DNA from: a virus
Virus record (IMG/VR): IMGVR_UViG_3300045988_154841
Location: 1-64,000 of that record
Direction: 5' to 3' (one strand)
DNA: 64,000 nt
Shown: one piece after another, positions 1 to 12,293 of the stretch
How the letters are laid out: each line of letters begins with the position of its first letter
Position numbering within the stretch: position 1 is the stretch's first letter
Translations under genes and position numbers: made by a program
The notes under the pieces: generated by a model
What the model was told of the DNA's origin: nothing
The model's database searches: none
The model's input: only the letters and a program-made list of their open reading frames with translations

Positions 1-38
1 ATATTAAGAAGATTTTGCATTATTGCATGGGTTGGGAA

Positions 39-55
39 TTGCATATATAATATAT
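39..55 (+). repeat. Partial copy of the upstream half of the conserved early-promoter block (TTGCATATATAATATAT)
   Basis: The 17 nt at 39-55 are identical to 61222-61238. Downstream, the TAATTTTG box of the 61-kb copy is replaced here by GTACATGCACGCG. Confidence 0.6.
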
Positions 56-197
56 GTACATGCACGCGTATAATATTTTATTTTTAATTTTCAAAATTAT
101 TTCTATTAAAAATTTGAAAAATAATTTTTAGAATTAAATTTTTTGATTTAAATCAATAAGAATAATTTTTTTGAAAAATATTCTTGAAAATGCTTGC

Positions 198-217
198 ACG
201 AATAAAATTTTATTCGT
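198..217. promoter_or_regulatory. Perfect 20-bp palindrome ACGAATAAAATTTTATTCGT, a candidate operator
   Basis: The sequence is exactly self-complementary when read directly. Its last base is the first base of the TAACTTTG -7 box. Confidence 0.55.
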
Positions 218-224
218 AACTTTG
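217..224 (+). promoter_or_regulatory. Bacteroidota-type -7 promoter box TAACTTTG
   Basis: It matches the TAnnTTTG consensus and lies in the AT-rich intergenic region upstream of the 339-776 ORF. This implies a leader of about 105 nt. Confidence 0.45.
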
Positions 225-338
225 CAATGTAAATAATAAACAAAGTGTTTAGAAAGTAGTTTTAAAAATCTGATTAGGGTCTACTGAATAACACAAAATA
301 TAATAAATAATAAAACCCTTTTCAGTAATTAATTAATT

Positions 339-776
339 ATGAAAAATAATAATGTAAACAACGAGAGTGCAAAAGTAGTTGAAAATGTAGAAAACAAAAA
401 AGCAGAGAAAAAAAATGCTCTCGAAAACATCTTTAAGAGTTTTAACGAAAATTCAAAGGGTCTTTTGACTACTAATTTAGGTACAAAAAAATCTTCGATA
501 TATAAAGATGAACTTTTCGAGAATATCGAAGAAAAACAAAAAAAATCTTTGAGAAAAAAATTCAGAAATATGTTATTTTCAGTTGCAAAAGCAATTGTAA
601 CAGAGAAAAAAGAAGAAAATAAAAAATCTTTGATTGATACTTTCAATGATTTTTATACTAATGTGTATAAAGTACACGATTATTCTTTAAGTTCTGTTTG
701 CAACGAAAATTTGCAACAAGAAAAGAAAGAAGTACTATTAAAAGCATTAGAAATTGTAAAGAAAGAAAATCAATAA
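339..776 (+). CDS. Hypothetical Lys/Glu/Asn-rich protein
   Basis: This is a 145-aa ORF with an ATG start, followed by a palindromic hairpin. I recognised no motif. Confidence 0.6.
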   Translation: MKNNNVNNESAKVVENVENKKAEKKNALENIFKSFNENSKGLLTTNLGTKKSSIYKDELFENIEEKQKKSLRKKFRNMLFSVAKAIVTEKKEENKKSLIDTFNDFYTNVYKVHDYSLSSVCNENLQQEKKEVLLKALEIVKKENQ

Positions 777-784
777 ACAAAAGT

Positions 785-812
785 ATAGAGAGTGTTTTTA
801 AACACTCTCTAT
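785..812. terminator. 28-nt near-perfect palindrome ATAGAGAGTGTTTTTAAACACTCTCTAT
   Basis: The 13-nt arms 785-797 and 800-812 are complementary. The T-run follows the stem only on the minus strand (ACTTTTGTTT), so the terminator direction is uncertain. Confidence 0.45.
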
Positions 813-865
813 ATAAAAAGAAAATCGAAATTAAAAATATATAACAACTTTAATATAAAAATATT

Positions 866-946
866 ATGGACTTAATTTTTCTTTATAGCATTTTATTAGC
901 TTGTGCAACTTTTAGTGTATCAAATCTTTTAAGTAAAGTATATTAG
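866..946 (+). CDS. Tiny hydrophobic peptide (26 aa) MDLIFLYSILLACATFSVSNLLSKVY
   Basis: ATG at 866 and TAG at 944-946. It is too short for the supplied ORF track. It has a single hydrophobic segment with a lipobox-like LLAC. Confidence 0.35.
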   Translation: MDLIFLYSILLACATFSVSNLLSKVY

Positions 947-947
947 T

Positions 948-1040
948 ATGCAGATAATTGTTATTTCTTTTGCTTGTATCAGTTTAATTTTTGCATGTGC
1001 TGCAATTATTCAAACAATAATAGATAAGTTCAGAAAATAA
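948..1040 (+). CDS. Tiny hydrophobic peptide (30 aa) MQIIVISFACISLIFACAAIIQTIIDKFRK
   Basis: The ATG at 948 lies 1 nt after the previous stop, and the TAA is at 1038-1040. It has one TM-like segment and a basic tail, and a strong hairpin terminator follows. Confidence 0.35.
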   Translation: MQIIVISFACISLIFACAAIIQTIIDKFRK

Positions 1041-1052
1041 AAATAAACAACT

Positions 1053-1099
1053 AAAAATAAGGGATGCAGTTTTTAAATAAAACTTTGTCCCTTATTTTT
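1053..1099. terminator. Bidirectional intrinsic terminator hairpin
   Basis: AAAAATAAGGGA (1053-1064) pairs with TCCCTTATTTTT (1088-1099), and an inner AGTTTT/AAAACT pairing extends the stem. A/T runs lie on both sides, between convergent units. Confidence 0.75.
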
Positions 1100-1160
1100 A
1101 TTTTAAAATTTTAACTTCCCGGGACACCGTGCCCCCCTCCCACAGCCCCAACTTTCCGAG

Positions 1161-1310
1161 CCTCGTATTAAGGGGAATCCCAGAAAGCCTGAATGCCTGA
1201 AATTTTGAATCCCAAATTCCTATCAAACCCCAAACACAATAAATCGGAGATCCCAAAAATTTTACCTACTAGGCCCAAAGCCCCTCGTATTAAGAAGATC
1301 CCCGATCCCA
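1161..1310. repeat. C-rich noncoding island with direct repeats
   Basis: CCTCGTATTAAG occurs at 1161-1172 and 1283-1294. ATCCCA occurs at 1177, 1209, 1250 and 1305, with ATCCCC at 1299. The flanking CCCGGGACACCGTGCCCCCCTCCCACAGCCCC is strikingly GC-rich for this genome. Confidence 0.7.
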
Positions 1311-1311
1311 A

Positions 1312-1557
1312 TTATATACTTATCACCTTATACATAGCCCAGAATATCCCAACTACTACTGAAAGCAATAAATACAGTATACCAAGGAAAGCATAGTTCT
1401 CTATCAACCTCTTAAAGGCAATGCTTGGTACAAACCTAACCTTATTTTCCCTAGACCTAATCCTATACATTCTTATCAAATATATTATAGAATACAGGGT
1501 ATATAGGATTAATAAAAGGCAATATACGATTGCCCACCAGAATAAAACATCTAACAT
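1312..1557 (-). CDS. Small membrane protein (2 predicted TM helices)
   Basis: This 81-aa ORF has hydrophobic stretches LFWWAIVYCLLLILYTLYSIIYL and FLGILYLLLSVVVGIFWAM. It is the last gene of the leftward operon. Confidence 0.6.
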   Translation of the reverse strand: MLDVLFWWAIVYCLLLILYTLYSIIYLIRMYRIRSRENKVRFVPSIAFKRLIENYAFLGILYLLLSVVVGIFWAMYKVISI

Positions 1558-1568
1558 AAGAGTAACAA

Positions 1569-1856
1569 TTAAATTATTAATAAGAATATACTAGAAACTA
1601 GCCTAATTAGGAAATACACCAGTAGAGTAATTCCCCAAGCGATGAGTAGGGTAATCACACTGCCAAAGGTTAGGCCCTTAGCCCAAGTACCAATGGATTC
1701 CCAGAATCTTCTTAGGAAAGACTTCTTAGGCTCCTGATACCTACTATCAAGTAACTCCTGAGTATGGTTAGAATCCTCTGCCATGAAATTTAATACTAGG
1801 CTCAGGAAGATAACCACTATCAGAGCCGAAATCATCTCAATAAAAATCGTTGTCAT
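1569..1856 (-). CDS. Small membrane protein
   Basis: This 95-aa ORF has an N-terminal TM (ISALIVVIFLSLVLNF) and a C-terminal hydrophobic region (VITLLIAWGITLLVYFLIRL). Confidence 0.6.
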   Translation of the reverse strand: MTTIFIEMISALIVVIFLSLVLNFMAEDSNHTQELLDSRYQEPKKSFLRRFWESIGTWAKGLTFGSVITLLIAWGITLLVYFLIRLVSSIFLLII

Positions 1857-1876
1857 ATTGTTGCTTAATTAAAGAT

Positions 1877-2998
1877 TTAACCTTCATAATCTCTTACTGC
1901 TATTGCACTGGGGAACCTGGGGATGCCATAATCACTGAGTTCCTGGTATTTCACGGTACATTGTTTTCCTATTAGGCTTTTTCTATTTACCCAGTAGGAG
2001 GTTCTTAGGGCCTTTGAGCCTTGAGGCCTAGCATTAAATTCCTTACCGTTCTTTGCTTTTAGGACGAATATGCCTGTACCTTTATCCCTGCCAGTTGCCT
2101 CTATCACGTCTATGATTGGGAATTCCTCGTCGAAGAACCTCTTAAGCTTTATCAGGTTGTTGGAACGGTATCCAATTTCATAAAGGCCTTGGAAGTTCCT
2201 TATGATTACTCCCTCATAGCCCTGCTTAACCATCTTATCGTGATATTCATATATCTCTTCTAGATTATTGGCTATGATAGTATCTAAGAACTTAATTGGG
2301 TCATTCTTACCTACCTTCTTCTTATCAGATTTTAATAGCTTGAATTGACGGTCGTAGTTTATTACTCCTTCTACCGGCTTATCATATACGATGATGTTTA
2401 TCTTATCAGTATCTTTGGATAGCCTTTTTACTGCTGAGATGATGCCTTGAAAGGTTAGGTCTCCATGATTATATAGCTCTCCATCCAAGGGAAGTATTTC
2501 TGAATGGTCCTCTAAGTACTTCTGGATGTGAGGTATGTTCAGGTCTTTACCTCTTCTAGATTTGAGATGTACACCCTCAGCATCTTTATACATGATACAC
2601 CTTACGCCGTCTAGTTTAGCTTGAACCATGCAGGGGAATGAAATGCGTTTTTCGTCCCATTTAATTGCTAGCATGGGCTCTGGGCTAGCCTTTTCTTCAA
2701 CCAATTGTTCATTATAACCTTTATCTTTAAGCCTAGCTATAATTGACTTAGCCTCCCTTATTGCTTGTTCCCAAGCCGAAGTTTGATTAGACCTTCCCAG
2801 ATTTTTACCCTCTGTATAAAGGTAGTGGTCGTAGGTGATTTTACCATTTGGCTCTATCTTTTTCTTAGTAGTCATTACTACTTTTTCTGTAGAATAGAAC
2901 CTAACGATTGTCTTGAAAGACCTTACTTGCCCAGACTTAGTCTTATTATATAATTTCTTAAAGGGCTTTCGCTTAACTGGTTTCTTATTTCTCTTCAT
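1877..2998 (-). CDS. ATP-dependent DNA ligase
   Basis: Motif I is KLDGVRC (adenylation Lys), with LDGELY, EGVIIRN and LIKLKRF matching motifs III, IV and V. I prefer the ATG at 2998 (TAAcATG just after the upstream stop) over the track start at 3025. Confidence 0.85.
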   Translation of the reverse strand: MKRNKKPVKRKPFKKLYNKTKSGQVRSFKTIVRFYSTEKVVMTTKKKIEPNGKITYDHYLYTEGKNLGRSNQTSAWEQAIREAKSIIARLKDKGYNEQLVEEKASPEPMLAIKWDEKRISFPCMVQAKLDGVRCIMYKDAEGVHLKSRRGKDLNIPHIQKYLEDHSEILPLDGELYNHGDLTFQGIISAVKRLSKDTDKINIIVYDKPVEGVINYDRQFKLLKSDKKKVGKNDPIKFLDTIIANNLEEIYEYHDKMVKQGYEGVIIRNFQGLYEIGYRSNNLIKLKRFFDEEFPIIDVIEATGRDKGTGIFVLKAKNGKEFNARPQGSKALRTSYWVNRKSLIGKQCTVKYQELSDYGIPRFPSAIAVRDYEG

Positions 2999-2999
2999 G

Positions 3000-3332
3000 T
3001 TAGTAAATCTTTTTATAGAAGCCAAGAAAATAACCTATTGAATATATCAAAGAACTTAATTTGTTCCTATTTTGAATATGTTCTATAGCGTTATCTGTGA
3101 ATTCATATAATATCTCCAGTTTATCCACTAGCCTATTGTAGTGATCTACTTCGGAAGCTTTCTTATAAGACTTATATTCTATGCTTAACATCAATAACCT
3201 TATGTCTCTTGATGTTATATGCTCAAATTCTAGATCTTTTATGCCTGAAGCCTCTTCGTCTAACCTTGCTTCAAACTTATTATCGACAAAACCCACTAAC
3301 CAAACGAGTGAGTATTTCATATCTTTATCCAT
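3000..3332 (-). CDS. Hypothetical protein
   Basis: This is a 110-aa ORF packed tightly within the operon. I recognised no motif. Confidence 0.6.
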   Translation of the reverse strand: MDKDMKYSLVWLVGFVDNKFEARLDEEASGIKDLEFEHITSRDIRLLMLSIEYKSYKKASEVDHYNRLVDKLEILYEFTDNAIEHIQNRNKLSSLIYSIGYFLGFYKKIY

Positions 3333-3343
3333 ATCATTTATAA

Positions 3344-3877
3344 TTATTCATTAAACAATTTAGCTACTATCTCTTTATTTATCCGGTAGCAAGTGAACTC
3401 TTCGTCTACCTTAGTATTTTTACGGGATATTAGGTGCAGTGTTTCATAATCGGTTAAAAACTTGGCATTCACCTTGAATTTAGGGTACCATATAGTGGGT
3501 ATTTCTATACCTGCCCATAGCTCATTTACGGTGTAAAGTTCTCCTTTTCTAGTTAAAATCTTGTGTTTAGGTTGTACTAAGCTTACTGGGTGAAATTCTA
3601 GGTTTGACTTACCGTCTGGCAATTCAAAGGGTATAAACCAATAATATCTTCTGTTTAACTTTGCCGATGGCTCATAATTAGAGCCTGTAACTATGGATAA
3701 ACCAGGTATTTTAGGCTTAATATTATTCTTAGAATCTAGTAATTTCTGCCAAAAAGCACAATCAAAACATAGTTTTTGAGATAACATTAGTTTTGGTACT
3801 TCTAAGTTAGTATCAAACTCTTGTATATTTTCTAGTTCTTTCTTGCAACATTTGCAAATATTATTCCCATACTTCAT
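3344..3877 (-). CDS. Hypothetical protein with an N-terminal Cys4 zinc-ribbon-like motif
   Basis: CKCC (residues 8-11) and CFDC about 25 residues later suggest a zinc ribbon. The ORF is 177 aa. Confidence 0.6.
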   Translation of the reverse strand: MKYGNNICKCCKKELENIQEFDTNLEVPKLMLSQKLCFDCAFWQKLLDSKNNIKPKIPGLSIVTGSNYEPSAKLNRRYYWFIPFELPDGKSNLEFHPVSLVQPKHKILTRKGELYTVNELWAGIEIPTIWYPKFKVNAKFLTDYETLHLISRKNTKVDEEFTCYRINKEIVAKLFNE

Positions 3878-4271
3878 ATTCTTCTCCTTTTAAAGTTCTG
3901 TATTTTCTAAGTCTTGGTTTTTTAGGCTCTTTATCCTCCCATCGATAATCTGTTGGAGGTTGGTAATCCGTTCTAACTTTCTTAAAAGCTTCTCCGGATA
4001 TCATCCAAGCTAAAACTAATACCCATATAATGTTGATGATTACGAAAGGTATTGGGTTTCTATTTGGGTTCCATTGGCTTTTCCAACCGGGGGATTTTTT
4101 GCCCCATTTCTTATAATTCTTGGCTAAATAATATGTAGCAAATGGTGCAATAATAAAGAAGATTACGAAAAATCCCAACTCTGCTCCTAAGAACATATCT
4201 CCAGCAACAACGTTTTCTAGGTTATCTGAGTATCCTCTGAGTTTACCTTTTCTGTCATAATGAAGTCTCAT
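3861..4271 (-). CDS. Membrane protein
   Basis: This 136-aa ORF has TM-like segments FLGAELGFFVIFFIIAPFATYYL and IPFVIINIIWVLVLAWMI. Confidence 0.6.
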   Translation of the reverse strand: MRLHYDRKGKLRGYSDNLENVVAGDMFLGAELGFFVIFFIIAPFATYYLAKNYKKWGKKSPGWKSQWNPNRNPIPFVIINIIWVLVLAWMISGEAFKKVRTDYQPPTDYRWEDKEPKKPRLRKYRTLKGEEYEVWE

Positions 4272-4272
4272 G

Positions 4273-4491
4273 TTATTTTCTGTTTTTAGTTACTAATCTA
4301 TAAAAGAATAAGGGCATTACTACCCATACTGTTAAGAAATGATATAATATTCCTAGCCATTTATTTGGGGCATCTTCTATTTTCATACCAAGCCTTTCTT
4401 GTATATAAGTGAAAAAGAGGGCAGGCAGTATACAAATGGCGTATATCATAATTATAGCCATACCTAACATATCTACTAGACTTGAAATCAT
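4273..4491 (-). CDS. Small two-TM membrane protein (holin-sized)
   Basis: This 72-aa ORF has two hydrophobic helices and a basic C-terminus (KNRK). A holin role is speculative. Confidence 0.55.
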   Translation of the reverse strand: MISSLVDMLGMAIIMIYAICILPALFFTYIQERLGMKIEDAPNKWLGILYHFLTVWVVMPLFFYRLVTKNRK

Positions 4492-4925
4492 ACTAATTTA
4501 TTCATTTTACGTTCTACTTTTTCTATAAATTCTAGAGCTTCTGGTTCAAATATAAGTTCCCGATTAGAGGTGAAGGTCACCTTTTGTTTCAGTTTATCAT
4601 ATACATTTGCAAAGCTCCTTTTGAATTGGTAGGCTTTCCAAATTCTTTCTGTATCTCCTGTACCGTATTTCCAGGATTTAGATATGGGCAAAGCTGTACT
4701 TACAGATTTTCTCTTTCTTTTCTTATTTAATTCTTTCTGTTCGATACTTTCTCGGTAGTCTGCCCGATTATAAGTACCTTCTGAAGAAGGTTTCCTGTAT
4801 AATACTACCCCATTACTTAGTTTTACGGTAGAGTTCTCTTTATTAACCTGAATTACTTCGGTTAATTCTATGGTAGTACTACCATCCCAGTATAGAACTT
4901 TGTCGCTTAAATTTAATTTTTCCAT
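4488..4925 (-). CDS. Hypothetical protein, first gene of the leftward operon
   Basis: This 145-aa ORF has its ATG 31 nt downstream of the conserved TAATTTTG promoter block. Confidence 0.65.
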   Translation of the reverse strand: MEKLNLSDKVLYWDGSTTIELTEVIQVNKENSTVKLSNGVVLYRKPSSEGTYNRADYRESIEQKELNKKRKRKSVSTALPISKSWKYGTGDTERIWKAYQFKRSFANVYDKLKQKVTFTSNRELIFEPEALEFIEKVERKMNKLV

Positions 4926-4939
4926 AATTATCTTTATTG

Positions 4940-4969
4940 TTAAATTTGTTATAGTGCAAAATTAATAAT
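4940..4969 (-). promoter_or_regulatory. Conserved early-promoter block, copy 1 (-7 box TAATTTTG at 4964-4957)
   Basis: The minus strand reads TTATTAATTTTGCACTATAACAAATTTAA. It is nearly identical to the blocks at 40005-40035 (minus) and 61241-61273 (plus). Confidence 0.7.
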
Positions 4970-5126
4970 TTATTTTTAATAAAGAAACTATTTTAAGTAC
5001 TTTCTTTAAAACTTCTGAGGTTGTGGGTAGTTACATACCTCAGTATACATTATTCAATAGTTTAATGGGTAGCATCATTAGTAAGGCCTTTGAGCAATAC
5101 TTATCAGCTTATATAATATAATTATA

Positions 5127-5134
5127 TAACTTTG
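5127..5134 (+). promoter_or_regulatory. -7 box TAACTTTG only 6 nt upstream of the endolysin ATG
   Basis: It matches TAnnTTTG. The spacing implies a leaderless or nearly leaderless mRNA. Confidence 0.4.
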
Positions 5135-5140
5135 TAAGAT

Positions 5141-5683
5141 ATGGAAGTAACAGTAAAACAATTGATTTCATGTGGAGTATCTTCATCAAAAGCTGTGATA
5201 TATGCTCCAATTATCAGCCAATATTCAGGAGATTTTGGTATTAATACTCCTATGAGAATGGCTCATTTTTTAGCTCAGGTATTACATGAGAGTGGATGTT
5301 TTGTGTATGTTAAGGAATTGGCTAGTGGAGCAGCTTATGATACTGGTAAGAAAGCTCAGGCTCTTGGTAATACACCTAAGGCAGATGGTGATGGTCAAAA
5401 GTACAAAGGTAGAGGATTAATACAGGTGACTGGTACTAATAACTATCGAGCTTGTGGTAAATTCTTTGGCCAGGATTTCTTGACACACCCAGAATTATTA
5501 GAGAAACCAGAATGGGCTTTTAGGTCTGCGGGATGGTTTTGGAAAACTGCTAAATGTAATGAATTAGCTGATAAGGACGAATTTACTCAAATAACTCGTA
5601 AAATCAACGGAGGTACCAACGGTCTTAATAGTAGGTTAGCTTTTCTAGCTAAAACTAAAAAAGCTTTTGGTGTAATAAAGTAA
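5141..5683 (+). CDS. Endolysin, glycoside hydrolase family 19 (chitinase-like) type
   Basis: AHFLAQVLHESG and YKGRGLIQVTGTNNY match the GH19 / phage lysozyme signature (HES...GRG-x-IQ-x-T-x-x-x-NY). Confidence 0.8.
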   Translation: MEVTVKQLISCGVSSSKAVIYAPIISQYSGDFGINTPMRMAHFLAQVLHESGCFVYVKELASGAAYDTGKKAQALGNTPKADGDGQKYKGRGLIQVTGTNNYRACGKFFGQDFLTHPELLEKPEWAFRSAGWFWKTAKCNELADKDEFTQITRKINGGTNGLNSRLAFLAKTKKAFGVIK

Positions 5684-6784: not shown

Positions 6785-6811
6785 GAACATTATCCCTCGT
6801 ATATGCGCGCG

Positions 6812-6847
6812 GTAGTTAATATACCCTAAAGAGTATATATTAACTAC
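6812..6847. other. Stable hairpin in the structured intergenic region
   Basis: GTAGTTAATA (6812-6821) pairs perfectly with TATTAACTAC (6838-6847). An alternative CCCTAAA (6824-6830) / TTTAGGG (6856-6862) pairing exists. GCGCGC lies at 6805-6810. Confidence 0.6.
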
Positions 6848-6919
6848 TATACGCATTTAGGGAGGTAATATTAATCATCATATAGAGAACAAGGAAAAAA
6901 TTATTCAAAACAATTAAGG

Positions 6920-6967
6920 CCTTAGCTCGGTAAACCTCGCTAAGGAAAATCCCGAGTCCGGGATTTT
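6920..6967 (+). terminator. Two tandem hairpins (terminator-like)
   Basis: CCTTAGC (6920-6926) pairs with GCTAAGG (6939-6945). It is followed immediately by AAAATCCCG (6946-6954) pairing with CGGGATTTT (6959-6967) around a tetraloop. Confidence 0.5.
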
Positions 6968-6998
6968 CAGATAAGCCTTATTAAAATTTCGAAGTGAA

Positions 6999-7814
6999 AT
7001 GAAAACATTAAGTCACATCTTGGGGTTTATAAAGAAATTTCCCCTGCTAGTATTTTGCATGTTCATTGGGTTACTAGGAATAACTATATACCTTTGCTTC
7101 AAGATTAAAACTCTGAATCTTCAGCTAAGCAAATATGAGCCGGTTCATAACTCTCGCATAGATGTAACCACATATAACACCGGCTTAAAGGGTAAAAGAA
7201 CTTTTCAAACCACCACTATCGCTGGTACAGAGTCAAAATTCAAAGAAGTACCTCATTATTCAGGGGTTAAGCAACCAGAGAAAATCCTTTACTGGGACTC
7301 TAAAATTTCAGCAGGAACCTCGAGCTCTCAAGTTGGTAAAACATCCTCAATTGATTCATCAATCACTACCAACAAATCTATTTCGGGATTTTATTTCCGA
7401 GACTTTAGCTCAAACACTTATCCAGCAGAATGGAGCCCAAGTAAGGATTCTCTGGTTCAACTTTTATTAGACAGGAACAATATAGCTTTTAGTTTTTACA
7501 ACCGAGGGGCTCAGAAGTATTTGACTAAGTCATACACATTAGACCTAGAGAGGTACAAATACAACTGGGCTCCTTCTTTTGGTTTAACTTACGAAAAAAA
7601 GGTTTTATTCGAAATAAGCCCATACATCTATGGTAGGTATTTGGTTTTTCAAAAGATCTCCACCATAGGTACTGGAATTCAATTCAAGACCAGGAAAATA
7701 GATTATAACCTAGGAGTATCTTGGTCACTGAATGATAGGATAAATACATATTCTAAGTTTAAACCAGATCTAGAATTACAAGTAACTTACAGATTTAAGA
7801 AATGGCTAAAATAG
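6999..7814 (+). CDS. Signal-anchored, Ser/Thr- and beta-strand-rich protein of unknown function
   Basis: The N-terminal TM is FPLLVFCMFIGLLGITIYLCF. The C-terminal half has an alternating hydrophobic pattern ending ELQVTYRF-KKWLK. It occupies the position usually held by the small terminase. Confidence 0.6.
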   Translation: MKTLSHILGFIKKFPLLVFCMFIGLLGITIYLCFKIKTLNLQLSKYEPVHNSRIDVTTYNTGLKGKRTFQTTTIAGTESKFKEVPHYSGVKQPEKILYWDSKISAGTSSSQVGKTSSIDSSITTNKSISGFYFRDFSSNTYPAEWSPSKDSLVQLLLDRNNIAFSFYNRGAQKYLTKSYTLDLERYKYNWAPSFGLTYEKKVLFEISPYIYGRYLVFQKISTIGTGIQFKTRKIDYNLGVSWSLNDRINTYSKFKPDLELQVTYRFKKWLK

Positions 7815-9298
7815 ATTTAAAAAACACTACGGGCTTAAATACCGAGCAAGTAGGTATACTTAATAAAGTAGTACAGGATGTTTTCTTTTTTAGCATTTTC
7901 TGTTTTGTAGTACATCCCGTAAGGGGTAAGGTACATTTTGACCTATACCCTTTTCAAAAATCAGTACTGTACCAATTTATTCTAAATCAGTTCAATATCG
8001 TACTTAAGTTTAGGCAGGCCGGTATAACTGAATTAATATCTATGTACTGTCTCTGGTTAGCAATGTATCATCCAAATAAGAAGATAAATATCATATCGAT
8101 TAAGGACACTACAGCTAAGAAGGTTCTAAAGAAAATCAAATTTATGTATAAGAACCTTCCTTGGTTTTTACAGGTACCTATCGTAAATGGTAGAACTGGG
8201 GAATATGGCTCAGCTTCGATGATAGAGTTTAGTAATGGCTCTTTCATAGAATCAATACCTACTTCATCTGAGGCTGGCCGTTCTGAATCTCTATCTTTAT
8301 TGGTGATAGATGAAGCAGCTATAGTTAGATGGGCTTCTCAAATATGGGCTGCTGCTTTCCCAACATTGTCTACTGGAGGTGCTGCCATAGTTAATTCTAC
8401 ACCCTATGGAGTAGGTAACTTCTATTACTCAACTTGGGTAGATGCTATGTCAGGAGGTAATCCTTTCAACCCAATCAGGCTTTATTGGCGTATGCACCCT
8501 GAAAGAGATGATGATTGGTACAATAACATGTCTTCTGCACTAGGCCCAAAGAGAACTGCCCAAGAAATAGACGGAGACTTCCTATCATCCGGTAATACAG
8601 TATTCGATTTATGGGATATTAAAGCCATAGAGGATTGCTTATCCGATTGGCCAATCATACAACGTAGGTATAATGGCCAATATTTACAATTCTTAGAGCC
8701 TAACCCAAACAAAGAATATTTCATCGGTTCAGATATAGCTACTGGTAGAGCTTCTGACTATTCAACCTTCACTTGTATGGACAAGGAGGGAGAAGAACAA
8801 GCAGTATACAAAGGTAGAATGGCTGTTGATAAATATGCCAGACTATTGGGAGATACAGGAAGATTATTCAACTATGCTACAATAGCTCCTGAATCAAATG
8901 ATATAGGTTTAGCTGTAACTTCTATGCTACAAACAGAAGGTTATCCAAAACTATATTATTATCAGAAGATGATTAAGAAGAAAGGTAGATCTCGTCCAGA
9001 AGTAGATAAATCTCCAGGATGGTTAACCACTTCTAAGAATAGACCAGTTATAATAGATGGGCTAGAATCAGATATTCGTAATGATAATGTTATAATTAAG
9101 GATCCTTTCTTTGTACAGGAAGCCCGAACTTTTATATATGATGGTTTGGGAAGGCCAGTGGCTATGGGAAAACATAAAAGAAACAGTGAAGACGATTCTT
9201 TATCATCCGATGTATATGCTGATGATGATATTATGGGAAAAGCCATCTGCAATCACATACGAAAAGGTAAACAAAATATTATTATACAACCAAGATGA
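7802..9298 (+). CDS. Terminase large subunit (T4 gp17-like family)
   Basis: It has the Walker A-like LKFRQAGITE (RQ-x-G-x-T), Walker B LLVIDEAA, and nuclease-domain acidic motifs GSDIATG and IAPESNDIG. Confidence 0.85.
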   Translation: MAKIDLKNTTGLNTEQVGILNKVVQDVFFFSIFCFVVHPVRGKVHFDLYPFQKSVLYQFILNQFNIVLKFRQAGITELISMYCLWLAMYHPNKKINIISIKDTTAKKVLKKIKFMYKNLPWFLQVPIVNGRTGEYGSASMIEFSNGSFIESIPTSSEAGRSESLSLLVIDEAAIVRWASQIWAAAFPTLSTGGAAIVNSTPYGVGNFYYSTWVDAMSGGNPFNPIRLYWRMHPERDDDWYNNMSSALGPKRTAQEIDGDFLSSGNTVFDLWDIKAIEDCLSDWPIIQRRYNGQYLQFLEPNPNKEYFIGSDIATGRASDYSTFTCMDKEGEEQAVYKGRMAVDKYARLLGDTGRLFNYATIAPESNDIGLAVTSMLQTEGYPKLYYYQKMIKKKGRSRPEVDKSPGWLTTSKNRPVIIDGLESDIRNDNVIIKDPFFVQEARTFIYDGLGRPVAMGKHKRNSEDDSLSSDVYADDDIMGKAICNHIRKGKQNIIIQPR

Positions 9299-10770: not shown

Positions 10771-12293
10771 GTAGACCAATAACAACCAGTAACAAGTCCT
10801 ACCTAGATTCGATGGTGATAGGTAGTGGACACTCTATCATGTCCGGTAATATACCGGAGGTAGTACAAGAGAAAAATAAACTAGTACAATTGACTAACAA
10901 CTTCTTCTCTTGGACAAATACCAGTAAAGACTCTGTTCAAGCATTAGGCTTTTGGGGAGGTGATATAGATTATAACACTTATTACCCTGATTTAAAACCC
11001 GATGAACTAACTCCTGCTGATAACGAGTTTATAACTCCGATGTTTAGACTTTTATCAGAGACTATAGTTAGTAAAAACTACAACCCAACTGATTTCAGTA
11101 GAAATGGGGTATTAAAAGCTTCTATGAAACTTCTGCTGGGTCAAACAGTAAACTGTGATCATGAGACAAACATAGGTAATGCTATCGGAGCAGTATCTAA
11201 AGTAGTCTGGCAAGATTCATATAAGGATGGCCAATTCACTATCCCAGGAGGTATAAACGGTATATTAAAAATTGATGGTAAAGCTAATCCTCGTATAGCT
11301 AGAGGTATAATGATGGACCCTCCATCAATACACAGCAATTCAGTAACTGTACAGTTTAAATGGGAGAAGTCACATCCGGAAATGAGTGATGAAGAGTTTT
11401 GGCAAAAACTCGGTACATACGATGAAAATGGAGTATTTATCTGTAGAGTAGTTACTGAAATAGTAAGATATCTAGAAACATCATTAGTCTCACATGGAGC
11501 TGACTATTTTGCTCAGAAGATTGGAGAAGATGGTAAAATTGTAAACCCTGAATTTGCTCATCGTACTTGGAATTCTTTTAAAGAATACGAGAATGATAAA
11601 TCAAAGCAATACTTTTTTATAGATAATAAATCTTGCGGTAACTTTACAGACAACGATACTCAGGTAAACAATAATGTAAATAAGAATCCGAAACCATTTA
11701 AATTAAATGATAATAAAATGAACCAAGAACTGAAAGAATTTTTAGAGAAGCTATTTGGAGACAATATGCTTACTCTCGGTGAAGGTAAAGAGGCCACTCA
11801 GGATGAAGCTTTGTCTTTGGTAAAAGCTTTGGCATCTGATAAGGTTTCTCTAGCCGAAAAGGTTACTAGCCTTACTGCCGAAATCGAAAAATTAACCGAA
11901 AAGGTTACCAGTCTTACTGCCGAGAATACTTCTCTAAAAGAAGTTTCTGAATTTGGTAAGAAATGCCTTGTAAACCTACGTGAAACTGTAGTAGCAAATT
12001 ACAAAAAAATTCAGGGTGATAAGCTGGATGAAAAAGACCCAGTACTTATCATGTTGAATTCAGAAACTACTCCTTTGATTACTTTAGAGGGTTTGAATAA
12101 GAACTATGAGCAAACTCTAAAAGAACTATTCCCTCTTAAGTGTTCTAAATGTGGTTCGAAGGATGTTAGTAGGTCTTCTTCTGTTCAAGACCCCGAAGAT
12201 CCCGATACTACTCAAAATAGTGAAGGTGTAGTGGATAATGCTACTGCAACTAACAATATCCTTGCTCGTAAGAATAAGTATAACAGAGAATAA
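10767..12293 (+). CDS. Putative prohead protease / scaffolding fusion protein
   Basis: It lies between portal and capsid genes. The N-terminal globular part contains CDHETNIGNAIG. The C-terminal part is coiled-coil with a duplicated EKVTSLTAE heptad segment. Confidence 0.45.
   Translation: MSRPITTSNKSYLDSMVIGSGHSIMSGNIPEVVQEKNKLVQLTNNFFSWTNTSKDSVQALGFWGGDIDYNTYYPDLKPDELTPADNEFITPMFRLLSETIVSKNYNPTDFSRNGVLKASMKLLLGQTVNCDHETNIGNAIGAVSKVVWQDSYKDGQFTIPGGINGILKIDGKANPRIARGIMMDPPSIHSNSVTVQFKWEKSHPEMSDEEFWQKLGTYDENGVFICRVVTEIVRYLETSLVSHGADYFAQKIGEDGKIVNPEFAHRTWNSFKEYENDKSKQYFFIDNKSCGNFTDNDTQVNNNVNKNPKPFKLNDNKMNQELKEFLEKLFGDNMLTLGEGKEATQDEALSLVKALASDKVSLAEKVTSLTAEIEKLTEKVTSLTAENTSLKEVSEFGKKCLVNLRETVVANYKKIQGDKLDEKDPVLIMLNSETTPLITLEGLNKNYEQTLKELFPLKCSKCGSKDVSRSSSVQDPEDPDTTQNSEGVVDNATATNNILARKNKYNRE
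11854..11925 (+). repeat. Imperfect 30-nt direct repeat with a 42-nt period
   Basis: CCGAAAAGGTTACTAGCCTTACTGCCGAAA at 11854 and CCGAAAAGGTTACCAGTCTTACTGCCGAGA at 11896 match at 27 of 30 positions. They encode the duplicated coiled-coil segment. Confidence 0.8.

Follow-up and report, generated by a model that had tools for sequence, protein, structure and literature searches.

A conserved, multipartite intergenic element with fixed internal spacing in phages related to the "Flandersviridae"

Organization of the locus

The DNA analysed here, a 64-kb stretch of a viral genome (hereafter the window), carries near its left end an element at 1087-1311 that lies between convergent gene units. This position, proposed earlier for the segment 1100-1311 from the sequence alone, is confirmed: on the left are the plus-strand ORF 339-776, a pair of tiny ORFs and the hairpin 1052-1100, and on the right lies the stop codon (1312-1314) of a minus-strand ORF of 81 aa, which core b of the element adjoins. 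The features of the region are the following:

1-1100, plus strand: AT-rich (~21% GC) operon of early type, defined by composition and ORFs, which always precedes the element
1052-1100, no strand: long hairpin with T-runs on both sides, read from its folding as a bidirectional intrinsic terminator
1087-1094: box 1, GTCCCTTA, in the 3′ arm of the 1052-1100 hairpin
1095-1125, no strand: spacer 1, 31 nt here and 31-32 nt in every clade
1126-1137, plus strand: box 2, by alignment ACCGT (1126-1130), which is invariant, and then a C-rich heptamer that varies (GCCCCCC here)
1138-1160, plus strand: rest of spacer 2, including a variable A/T-tract cassette (AACTTTCCGAG here)
1161-1184, plus strand: core unit a, CCTCGTATTAAG + GGGG + AATCCCAGA, from alignments and an nhmmer match at 1095-1221 (E 1.6e-17)
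1185-1282, plus strand: spacer between the two units, which contains (A/G)CCTGAA repeats and, at 1209 and 1250, ATCCCAAA boxes
1243-1251: within the inter-unit spacer, left arm, ATCGGAGAT, of an inverted repeat (9 bp) around core b
1283-1311, plus strand: core unit b, CCTCGTATTAAG + AAG + ATCCCCGAT + ATCCCAAT, the second nhmmer hit (1279-1306)
1298-1306: right arm, ATCCCCGAT, of the same inverted repeat, within core b

In most relatives the single core aligns with core a of the window. As the core of the element is present twice in the window, the 12-mer direct repeat noticed earlier corresponds to the two cores. In regard to the anatomy shared by the clades, box 1, (G/A)TCCC(T/C)TA, is usually the 3′ arm of a bidirectional terminator and is followed, after 31-32 nt, by ACCGT with its variable C-rich heptamer, then by 33-34 nt that include a YNYYCC box and an A/T tract, and finally by the core, in which CGTATTAA is followed by 3-4 purines and (T/A)(A/T)CC, in one or two copies. 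The distance from ACCGT to CGTATTAA is 33 nt in the window and 33-34 nt in all clades. The ATCCCAGA at 1177 is the counterpart of a ATCCCACAA box conserved in relatives, the other ATCCCA copies being clade-specific. In most clades, but not in that of the window, a CA-rich run and a second hairpin close the element, the hairpin being followed by TTCTTTGTGTG on the minus strand. The stem of the left terminator co-varies between clades (GGGAC/GTCCC vs GGGAT/ATCCC in L139), and in L140 the hairpin is rebuilt with box 1 in its loop, the distance to ACCGT still being 31 nt. The inverted repeat around core b is perfect in L133 and L137, and similar GCCTGAAA repeats are found in L141 and L142. The right-hand hairpin, GCCAGAGACC-TAATA-TCCCTGGC, is reverse-complemented (GCCAGGGATGTTAGGTCTCTGGC) in some genomes (L028, L034 and L076, as compared with most relatives) and is thus a flipped quasi-palindrome.

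The operon on the left is an island of ~21% GC, 1.15 kb long, in a genome of 35% GC (L001 10760-11900, starting ~50 nt left of the window). It has promoters and terminators of its own (hairpins 784-813 and 1052-1100), resembles an immediate-early or host-takeover cassette and is retained in every clade. ORF 339-776 encodes a lysine-rich, basic, all-helical protein of 145 aa, and is followed on the same strand by the tiny hydrophobic ORFs 866-946 (26 aa) and 948-1040 (30 aa). The 145-aa protein has 287 homologues, shows 44-54% identity in 62 related loci and gives a structure model with a pLDDT of 82; outside its own family, comparisons with Pfam, PHROG, NCBIfam, PDB sequences and known folds gave no match. 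This left synteny, the 145-aa gene and then one or two tiny hydrophobic ORFs, is invariant, while the right-hand genes differ even between phages whose large terminases (TerL) are >99% identical. From its invariant adjacency to the element we infer that the 145-aa protein is the first candidate for a protein that binds it.

Several other repeats were observed around the island. Upstream of it, ~750 gene-free nucleotides (L001 11518-12272, window ~-416 to 338) are packed with repeats, among them seven copies of TTGCAT in 105 nt, a pair of 20-nt direct repeats GCTTATCA(G/A)AGTTAC(C/A)TAAG, and TTGGGA(A/T) four times on the plus strand, a box also present on the minus strand inside the 1100-1311 stretch. 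An exact 12-mer, TATTAAGAAGAT, is directly repeated at 2-13 and 1288-1299, flanking the AT-rich island together with core a. An insertion of the island between these repeats was considered and set aside on weak support (local E 0.007, the corresponding pair in L014, a 9-mer, being at chance level). A sequence of ~55 nt in the divergent promoter gap (4919-4979) recurs at L001 17979-18030 and 19658-19716 with 83-85% identity and is probably a repeated phage promoter.

To the right, between the element and a minus-strand gene for an ATP-dependent DNA ligase (1877-2998), two minus-strand ORFs, 1312-1557 (81 aa) and 1569-1856 (95 aa), encode strongly hydrophobic products; they are conserved in the clade of the window and are missed by gene callers in several relatives.

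The phage and its family

The window comes from a virulent-type phage of ~78 kb from human oral metagenomes, two 78-kb contigs from such metagenomes carrying DNA identical to it, and the GC content of the genome, as given by the composition of the window, is ~35%. The window encodes a putative small terminase (terS, 6999-7814) and TerL (7802-9298), an endolysin, a cytosine methyltransferase, a capsid protein and a tape-measure protein, as well as a T4-style replication and recombination set consisting of a DnaB-like helicase, a Toprim primase, an SF2 helicase, DNA polymerase A, gp32, a RecA-like protein, a flap endonuclease, an SbcCD-like pair and Cpn10. Boxes of the form TAnnTTTG, the published promoter consensus of Bacteroidota, precede genes at 218-225 and 5128-5135 and agree with a host of that phylum.

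TerL is ~81% identical at the amino acid level to that of a large set of viral contigs of 84-88 kb, and the window belongs to an oral relative of the gut Bacteroidota phages termed "Flandersviridae". The family as a whole, oral relatives included, has genomes of 78-88 kb. The element-bearing gut contig OLVZ01000110.1 is classified in this group in supplementary file 2 of Benler et al. 2021 (PMC8008677), as are OFMV01000080.1 and OJQF01000028.1, two element-bearing contigs of the OHUU01000016.1 cluster. According to the same study, the hosts are Bacteroides, Parabacteroides and Prevotella, and phages of the Flandersviridae type rank with those assembled most often from the human gut (PMC8008677). 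The nearest deposited relative is MT121964 (TerL 71%), where no recognisable copy of the element was found in the first 8 kb and the last 5 kb. At the start of the MT121964.1 sequence (L085 1-100) are TTTAGGGTACCCTAAA, a palindrome of 16 bp without mismatch, and three TTAAGG boxes; this start echoes TTAAGGGGTACC of the element and is not alignable to it. Some IMG/VR contigs (e.g. L047, L050, L053) measure 163-172 kb, about twice the genome length, and may be head-to-tail dimers or concatemers that were assembled as such.

Composition and repeats of the 1100-1311 stretch

The sequence-only reading described the stretch largely correctly. The C-rich string it quoted is found at 1118-1149. The composition of 1100-1311 (A.32, C.32, G.14, T.22, C/G 2.3) shows the strongest skew of C over G in the window, and the five 212-nt segments with the greatest C skew in the 64 kb all start between 1101 and 1301. 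The description as GC-rich holds in relative terms only (45% GC vs ~35% for the genome), the sharper contrast in GC being that of the 21% GC island at 1-1100.

The exact 12-mer CCTCGTATTAAG does occur at 1161 and 1283 and only there, with no third copy in the window at up to 1 mismatch. Its chance expectation is 0.36, 6 of 100 shuffles reach two copies, and at up to 2 mismatches the count is at chance level; the pair extends to 21 nt with 81% identity. Three of the four reported copies of ATCCCA(A/G)A (1177, 1209, 1250) were recovered, the one at 1305 reading ATCCCAAT instead. Window-wide, six copies against 5.1 expected correspond to chance, and what is not random is that three of the six fall within 80 nt. 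The additional ATCCCC is present, starting at 1298 rather than 1299. The copy of CCTCGTAT at 6795, reported as recurring upstream of the packaging genes, is likewise real, but a second one is found at 11289, and the spacer 6785-6998 is not conserved in relatives, so the match at 6795 is best read as chance and the link of the element to this unconserved 8-mer was dropped. That spacer, which is 215 nt long and lies directly upstream of the putative terS, contains two strong hairpins and shows no conservation at the DNA level in relatives.

Conservation across the family

With positions 1-5200 of the window as a blastn query against 80 TerL-related loci, two segments recurred in many loci, namely 155-256, a promoter region, and 1043-1185, which corresponds to the hairpin and the first part of the stretch under study. 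Segment 4848-4978 recurred in one locus (L035), one long match was to L005, and the neighbouring genes remained unaligned. An nhmmer profile made from these matches located the element in ~66 of 84 loci, in constant orientation, 5-7 kb upstream of TerL and sometimes as a two-unit tandem. An exact-pattern search of IMG/VR yielded 47 contigs with the element, and its left part as a query retrieved at least 120 contigs from human-gut metagenomes (ACCGT and the core in 110 of 120, two cores in 20 of 120). Further genomes were reached through the neighbouring 145-aa protein, among them closer relatives (L133-L138) and further clades (L006/L007, L035, L139-L142), and all of them carry the element. 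Altogether, more than 200 related contigs hold it, in single copy, and its motifs occur elsewhere in the 64 kb at no more than chance level.

Comparison with related phages, which had been suggested as a check, thus found the core repeats conserved, so that the lack of conservation named beforehand as grounds for abandoning the packaging or origin proposal does not apply. The same comparison narrowed the claim of several ATCCCA repeats, of which a single box is kept in relatives. A second core follows the first after 100-122 nt in several clades including that of the window; the second unit is present in L141, L142 and L028-type loci, and core b is kept in all six genomes of the window's clade. 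Spacer lengths stay within 1 nt across seven clades (31-32 and 33-34 nt), with spacings of (31,31) or (31,30) in 105 of 108 instances, while spacer 1 beyond the T-run is only ~30% identical. No DNA similarity was found to 50,697 deposited phages, and the composite pattern of the element had 0 hits in 185,579 bacterial genomes. The element is a real, conserved and previously undescribed cis element of a prevalent phage family.

As its boxes and spacing are kept while the spacers drift, we think on sequence grounds that the element is functional. It could also have no function of its own and be a spacer that separates convergent terminators where a hypervariable gene region begins, a recombination linker that stays similar through hitch-hiking and frequent homologous exchange between co-circulating phages. 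Indeed, the element marks exactly the point where a conserved module gives way to genes that, among near-identical phages, are 53-66% identical or absent, the cassette types are shuffled relative to all neighbouring genes, and the units can be duplicated or combined. On the other hand, neutral spacers would gain indels, whereas here boxes and spacer lengths are kept although the spacers are ~30% and the 145-aa proteins 44-54% identical, and in L140 the distance of box 1 is retained despite the rebuilt hairpin. We regard the lack of a function of its own as unlikely. If the element were nevertheless only a terminator spacer, this would still be worth knowing, since it would otherwise be annotated as an origin or a pac site.

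Coding potential and other identities

The earlier claim that the stretch holds no convincing ATG-initiated ORF needs one amendment, as an ATG ORF of 67 aa on the plus strand (1193-1396) does overlap it. Its ATG falls in a 7-nt deletion of the close relative L133, so that it is not a gene. The segment can indeed be considered untranslated: a minus-strand open frame (PLNTR...VK...*) meets stops in cassette types A (L074), D, E and F as well as 1-nt length differences, and coding potential was consequently rejected on both strands, the frame being broken in relatives and the plus-strand ATG lost in L133.

Known RNA classes gave no better account of the stretch. ARAGORN found no tRNA or tmRNA in it, and Rfam 15 returned nothing at gathering scores or with permissive cut-offs, the best E-values (0.26-2.8) being far below threshold and centred on the terminator. 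Tandem RNA repeat arrays of the CRISPR-like or ToxI-like kind, with at least 2-3 head-to-tail units of ~28-45 nt, were excluded because the units here are 100-122 nt apart and number at most two, usually one. An intragenomic antisense target was rejected as well, as complementary matches are limited to 11-mers at chance level and the core has no second copy beyond the element. An attenuator in which box 1 pairs with TAAGGG of the core would have only 5-6 bp and shows no co-variation. Host-derived sequence or an attachment site was dismissed on the basis of 0 hits in 185,579 bacterial genomes and of the gene tables of the neighbouring loci, which list no integrase family. By eye, some clades seemed to hold a dif/XerD arm, a DnaA box, an ECF-type promoter or the Bacteroidota TAnnTTTG promoter, but none of these likenesses extends to every clade, and all were dropped.

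A possible packaging site or origin

The stretch had been put forward as a packaging site or origin, a possible role, none of whose specific predictions found support here. Several boxes at fixed spacing and in single copy, as found here, are what a cos or pac site would have. The more specific forms of the proposal fared worse. An iteron array would hold at least three phased direct repeats (~17-22 bp). The window has two cores, separated by 122 nt, and a single one is present in most relatives, so that the repeats are not iterons. A terminase-binding array in the usual sense is not borne out either, with one core in most relatives and cores 100-122 nt apart where there are two. An origin would also be expected to adjoin AT-rich DNA for unwinding and a gene for an initiator; the AT-rich neighbour of the element (21% GC) is a coding operon, and its 145-aa product has no recognisable fold.

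GC skew is a weak guide in phages. The cumulative GC-skew analysis suggested earlier places the minimum at ~4600-5000, in the divergent promoter gap 3.5 kb away, with no inflection at 1100-1311. It was also observed that the cumulative curve has its maximum near -7900 and that the skew is negative on the plus strand over 12 kb (~-7400 to 4900, L001 and window together). The genes left of the window are on the plus strand, and the skew there is thus not following transcription.

In regard to physical ends, none of 44 whole short gut metagenome contigs with box 1 ended up to 90 nt downstream of it, that is, inside the element. Contig break points do cluster 670-760 nt upstream of the element. 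As evidence of physical ends they were rejected: they fall in tandem AT-rich promoter repeats, at differing bases, and 2 of 9 contig starts examined (L196, L210) carry adapter remnants. We read these clustered break points as assembly artefacts. Such remnants (Nextera or TruSeq) are fused to phage sequence in the AT-rich island of three contigs (L007 1-28, L210 1-35, L196 1-27).

The packaging genes give no support to a packaging site. Between the element and the putative terS/terL pair lie 5.7 kb that include an opposite-strand module, and the element is thus not beside the small-terminase gene. Cassette type does not co-vary with the TerS-like protein or with any protein within 10 kb on either side of TerL: TerS-like identity to the reference is 95.3% in type D and 94.3% in non-D genomes, and the same boxes occur with TerS-like proteins that are only 28-48% identical between clades. 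The nearest characterised relatives of TerL are T4-like headful enzymes.

Taken literally, the earlier proposal would make the element either an iteron origin of the classical type or a cos site whose fixed ends fall in the C-rich heptamer. The two direct cores do adjoin a very AT-rich kilobase, the G+C-rich variable heptamer between invariant bases resembles a cohesive-end segment, and the multipartite fixed spacing recalls lambda cosQ-cosN-cosB. However, most relatives have a single core and the skew minimum is elsewhere, every assembled contig runs through the heptamer, and full-length contigs are circular permutations with scattered break points, those that do cluster lying upstream at differing bases and partly carrying adapters. 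Even virome coverage is also reported for one family member (PMC8008677). This literal form, already weakened, is in our view highly improbable.

Transcript-level explanations

A role in RNA has to be weighed for each strand. For the leftward transcript, the G/U-rich minus-strand RNA could be the 3′ UTR of the accessory operon or a 3′-derived small RNA that ends at the bidirectional terminator, with the invariant CCCCUUAAUACGAGG and ACGGU as sites for binding a protein or a target. The left hairpin has a T-run on its minus side too and so looks built to stop leftward transcripts, and in the clade of the window nothing terminates between the stop of the 81-aa ORF and this hairpin. Also in agreement, the minus strand of the window folds with a z of -4.4, and the 9-bp inverted repeat around core b has a G.U pair on the minus strand. 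The z value, however, includes the terminator itself, RNAalifold finds no shared helix, the core flanks show no excess of minus-strand pairing (z +0.07), and most clades have a leftward terminator (hairpin and TTCTTTGTGTG) before the core. Moreover, no promoter motif was seen, no complementary target of at least 12 nt is present within 20 kb or in the window, and there is no match to an Rfam family. We hold a function of the leftward RNA to be rather unlikely, without being far-fetched.

For the rightward transcript, C-rich, G-poor RNA produced by read-through on the plus strand could form a Rho-loading (rut) site, or a nut-like linear box with a small hairpin, and would determine how far early transcription extends antisense to the accessory genes. 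No other stretch of the window is as C-skewed, the plus strand has a C/G of 1.3-2.3 in every clade and no consensus structure, and by composition and fold the stretch would give, downstream of a gene, an RNA of at least 80 nt that is rich in C, poor in G and unstructured, as in a rut site. There is also a small stem round the loop GUAUUAA, where U.G is replaced by U-A or C-G on the plus strand (CCTC/GGGG, CCTC/GAGG, CCCC/GGGG) with a modest excess of plus-strand pairing, and plus-strand genes follow the element in L051-type genomes. Against this, rut sites require neither invariant 9-12-mers nor nucleotide-exact spacing, many variants (GGAA, GGAG, GAAG, type D) have the 4-bp small stem disrupted or in another register, and the element comes after a strong terminator, not before it. 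Since C exceeds G over the whole 12 kb (-7400 to 4900) regardless of gene direction, the skew may also be regional. We consider a rightward RNA signal improbable.

A proposed protein-read site on DNA

The explanation that we tentatively prefer, while giving it somewhat less than an even chance, is that the element is a cis site on DNA, recognised by a protein, for packaging or for replication and maintenance; roles at the level of RNA are serious rivals to it. A protein or complex would read three boxes at fixed distances, namely TCCC(T/C)TA, ACCGT with the C-rich heptamer, and CGTATTAA followed by purines and (T/A)(A/T)CC. Binding would most likely take place on duplex DNA, in a gap shielded from transcription by the terminators, and the job would most likely be one at the level of the genome, such as the initiation of packaging, or replication and maintenance. 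Within this explanation we would roughly give packaging about half of the weight and replication or maintenance about a third, with other DNA transactions taking the rest. That the reader of the boxes is a protein, that its substrate is DNA rather than RNA, and which process it serves, we infer from the following observations.

RNAalifold gives 0 shared pairs on either strand, and the cassette always includes an A/T tract, in the form of a T-run, an A-run or A3T4; such flipping is tolerable for DNA and scrambles an RNA. In most clades, a terminator-like hairpin lies on each side of the core. A cis-acting genome site is further suggested by an element that is single-copy and multipartite and whose right-hand genes vary while the left synteny does not. 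Other observations fit less well. The clade of the window has no right-hand terminator, which places the element there in the 3′ UTR of the leftward operon, where it is probably transcribed. C exceeds G on the plus strand in all clades (C/G 1.3-2.3), and the core flanks fold better than shuffled flanks on the plus strand only (mean z -1.1 vs +0.07), which is weak evidence as the instances are phylogenetically related. Together, this asymmetry and one-strand folding hint at a strand-specific role, in RNA or in single-stranded DNA. Inverted repeats flank the core in clade-specific registers (CCTC/GAGG, CCCC/GGGG, ATCC/GGAT, GTACC/GGTAC, ATCGGGGAT/ATCCCCGAT). The skew minimum elsewhere, the lack of a contig-end pile-up, TerS-like proteins ~95% identical between cassette types, the distance from terS, and the kinship of TerL with headful enzymes, which need no pac site, also count against such a site.

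To our knowledge, Flandersviridae are found as closed circles in hundreds of gut metagenomes, yet carry no recognisable partition, lysogeny, ori or pac functions, and we know of no account of how these and similar phages replicate, package or persist. An element that is single-copy, with invariant boxes and nucleotide-exact spacing in every examined clade, is an obvious place to look for such a function. The boldest possibility, which we hold to be rather doubtful, is that the element, perhaps together with the adjacent 145-aa gene, is the long-missing maintenance, replication or packaging signal of the Flandersviridae, or that it is a new kind of protein-read hairpin-loop signal on single-stranded nucleic acid, with a conserved loop (UCGUAUUAAG) and a free stem. 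The element can in any case serve as a compact marker of the family, and its one-unit and two-unit forms and cassette types are natural variants for the study of specificity.

Comparison with known systems

Among known systems, lambda cosQ-cosN-cosB and SPP1 pacL-pacC-pacR resemble the element in being single-copy, with short boxes at fixed distances, an A/T tract between boxes and recognition boxes that can be duplicated. It differs from them in sequence, in its position away from the small-terminase gene, and in having neither mapped ends nor co-variation with the TerS-like protein, as well as by a TerL nearest to the T4-type headful enzymes. Iteron origins such as lambda ori, P1 oriR and T4 oriE likewise have direct repeats by very AT-rich DNA, and the adjacent small basic protein could be a binder. 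Those origins, however, hold a phased array of 3-5 or more repeats, while the element has one or two cores 100-122 nt apart and no skew inflection, and its AT-rich neighbour is a coding operon.

On the side of RNA signals, lambdoid nut sites (a linear boxA and a boxB hairpin) are similar in combining a linear box, a set distance and a small hairpin whose loop is conserved while its stem varies, and Rho rut sites are similar in their C-rich, G-poor, unstructured plus-strand RNA. In contrast to both, the element lies downstream, not upstream, of a strong terminator, its stem is inconsistent across variants, and no N-like or Q-like protein was identified. PeSL elements of T4-type phages are multi-copy units of a promoter and a stem-loop that act as mobile regulatory cassettes at module borders. 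The element differs from PeSLs in being single-copy, in having no recognisable promoter and in its strict internal spacing, and shares with them the organization of a conserved intergenic sequence with stem-loops that borders a hypervariable gene region in which gene cassettes are exchanged.
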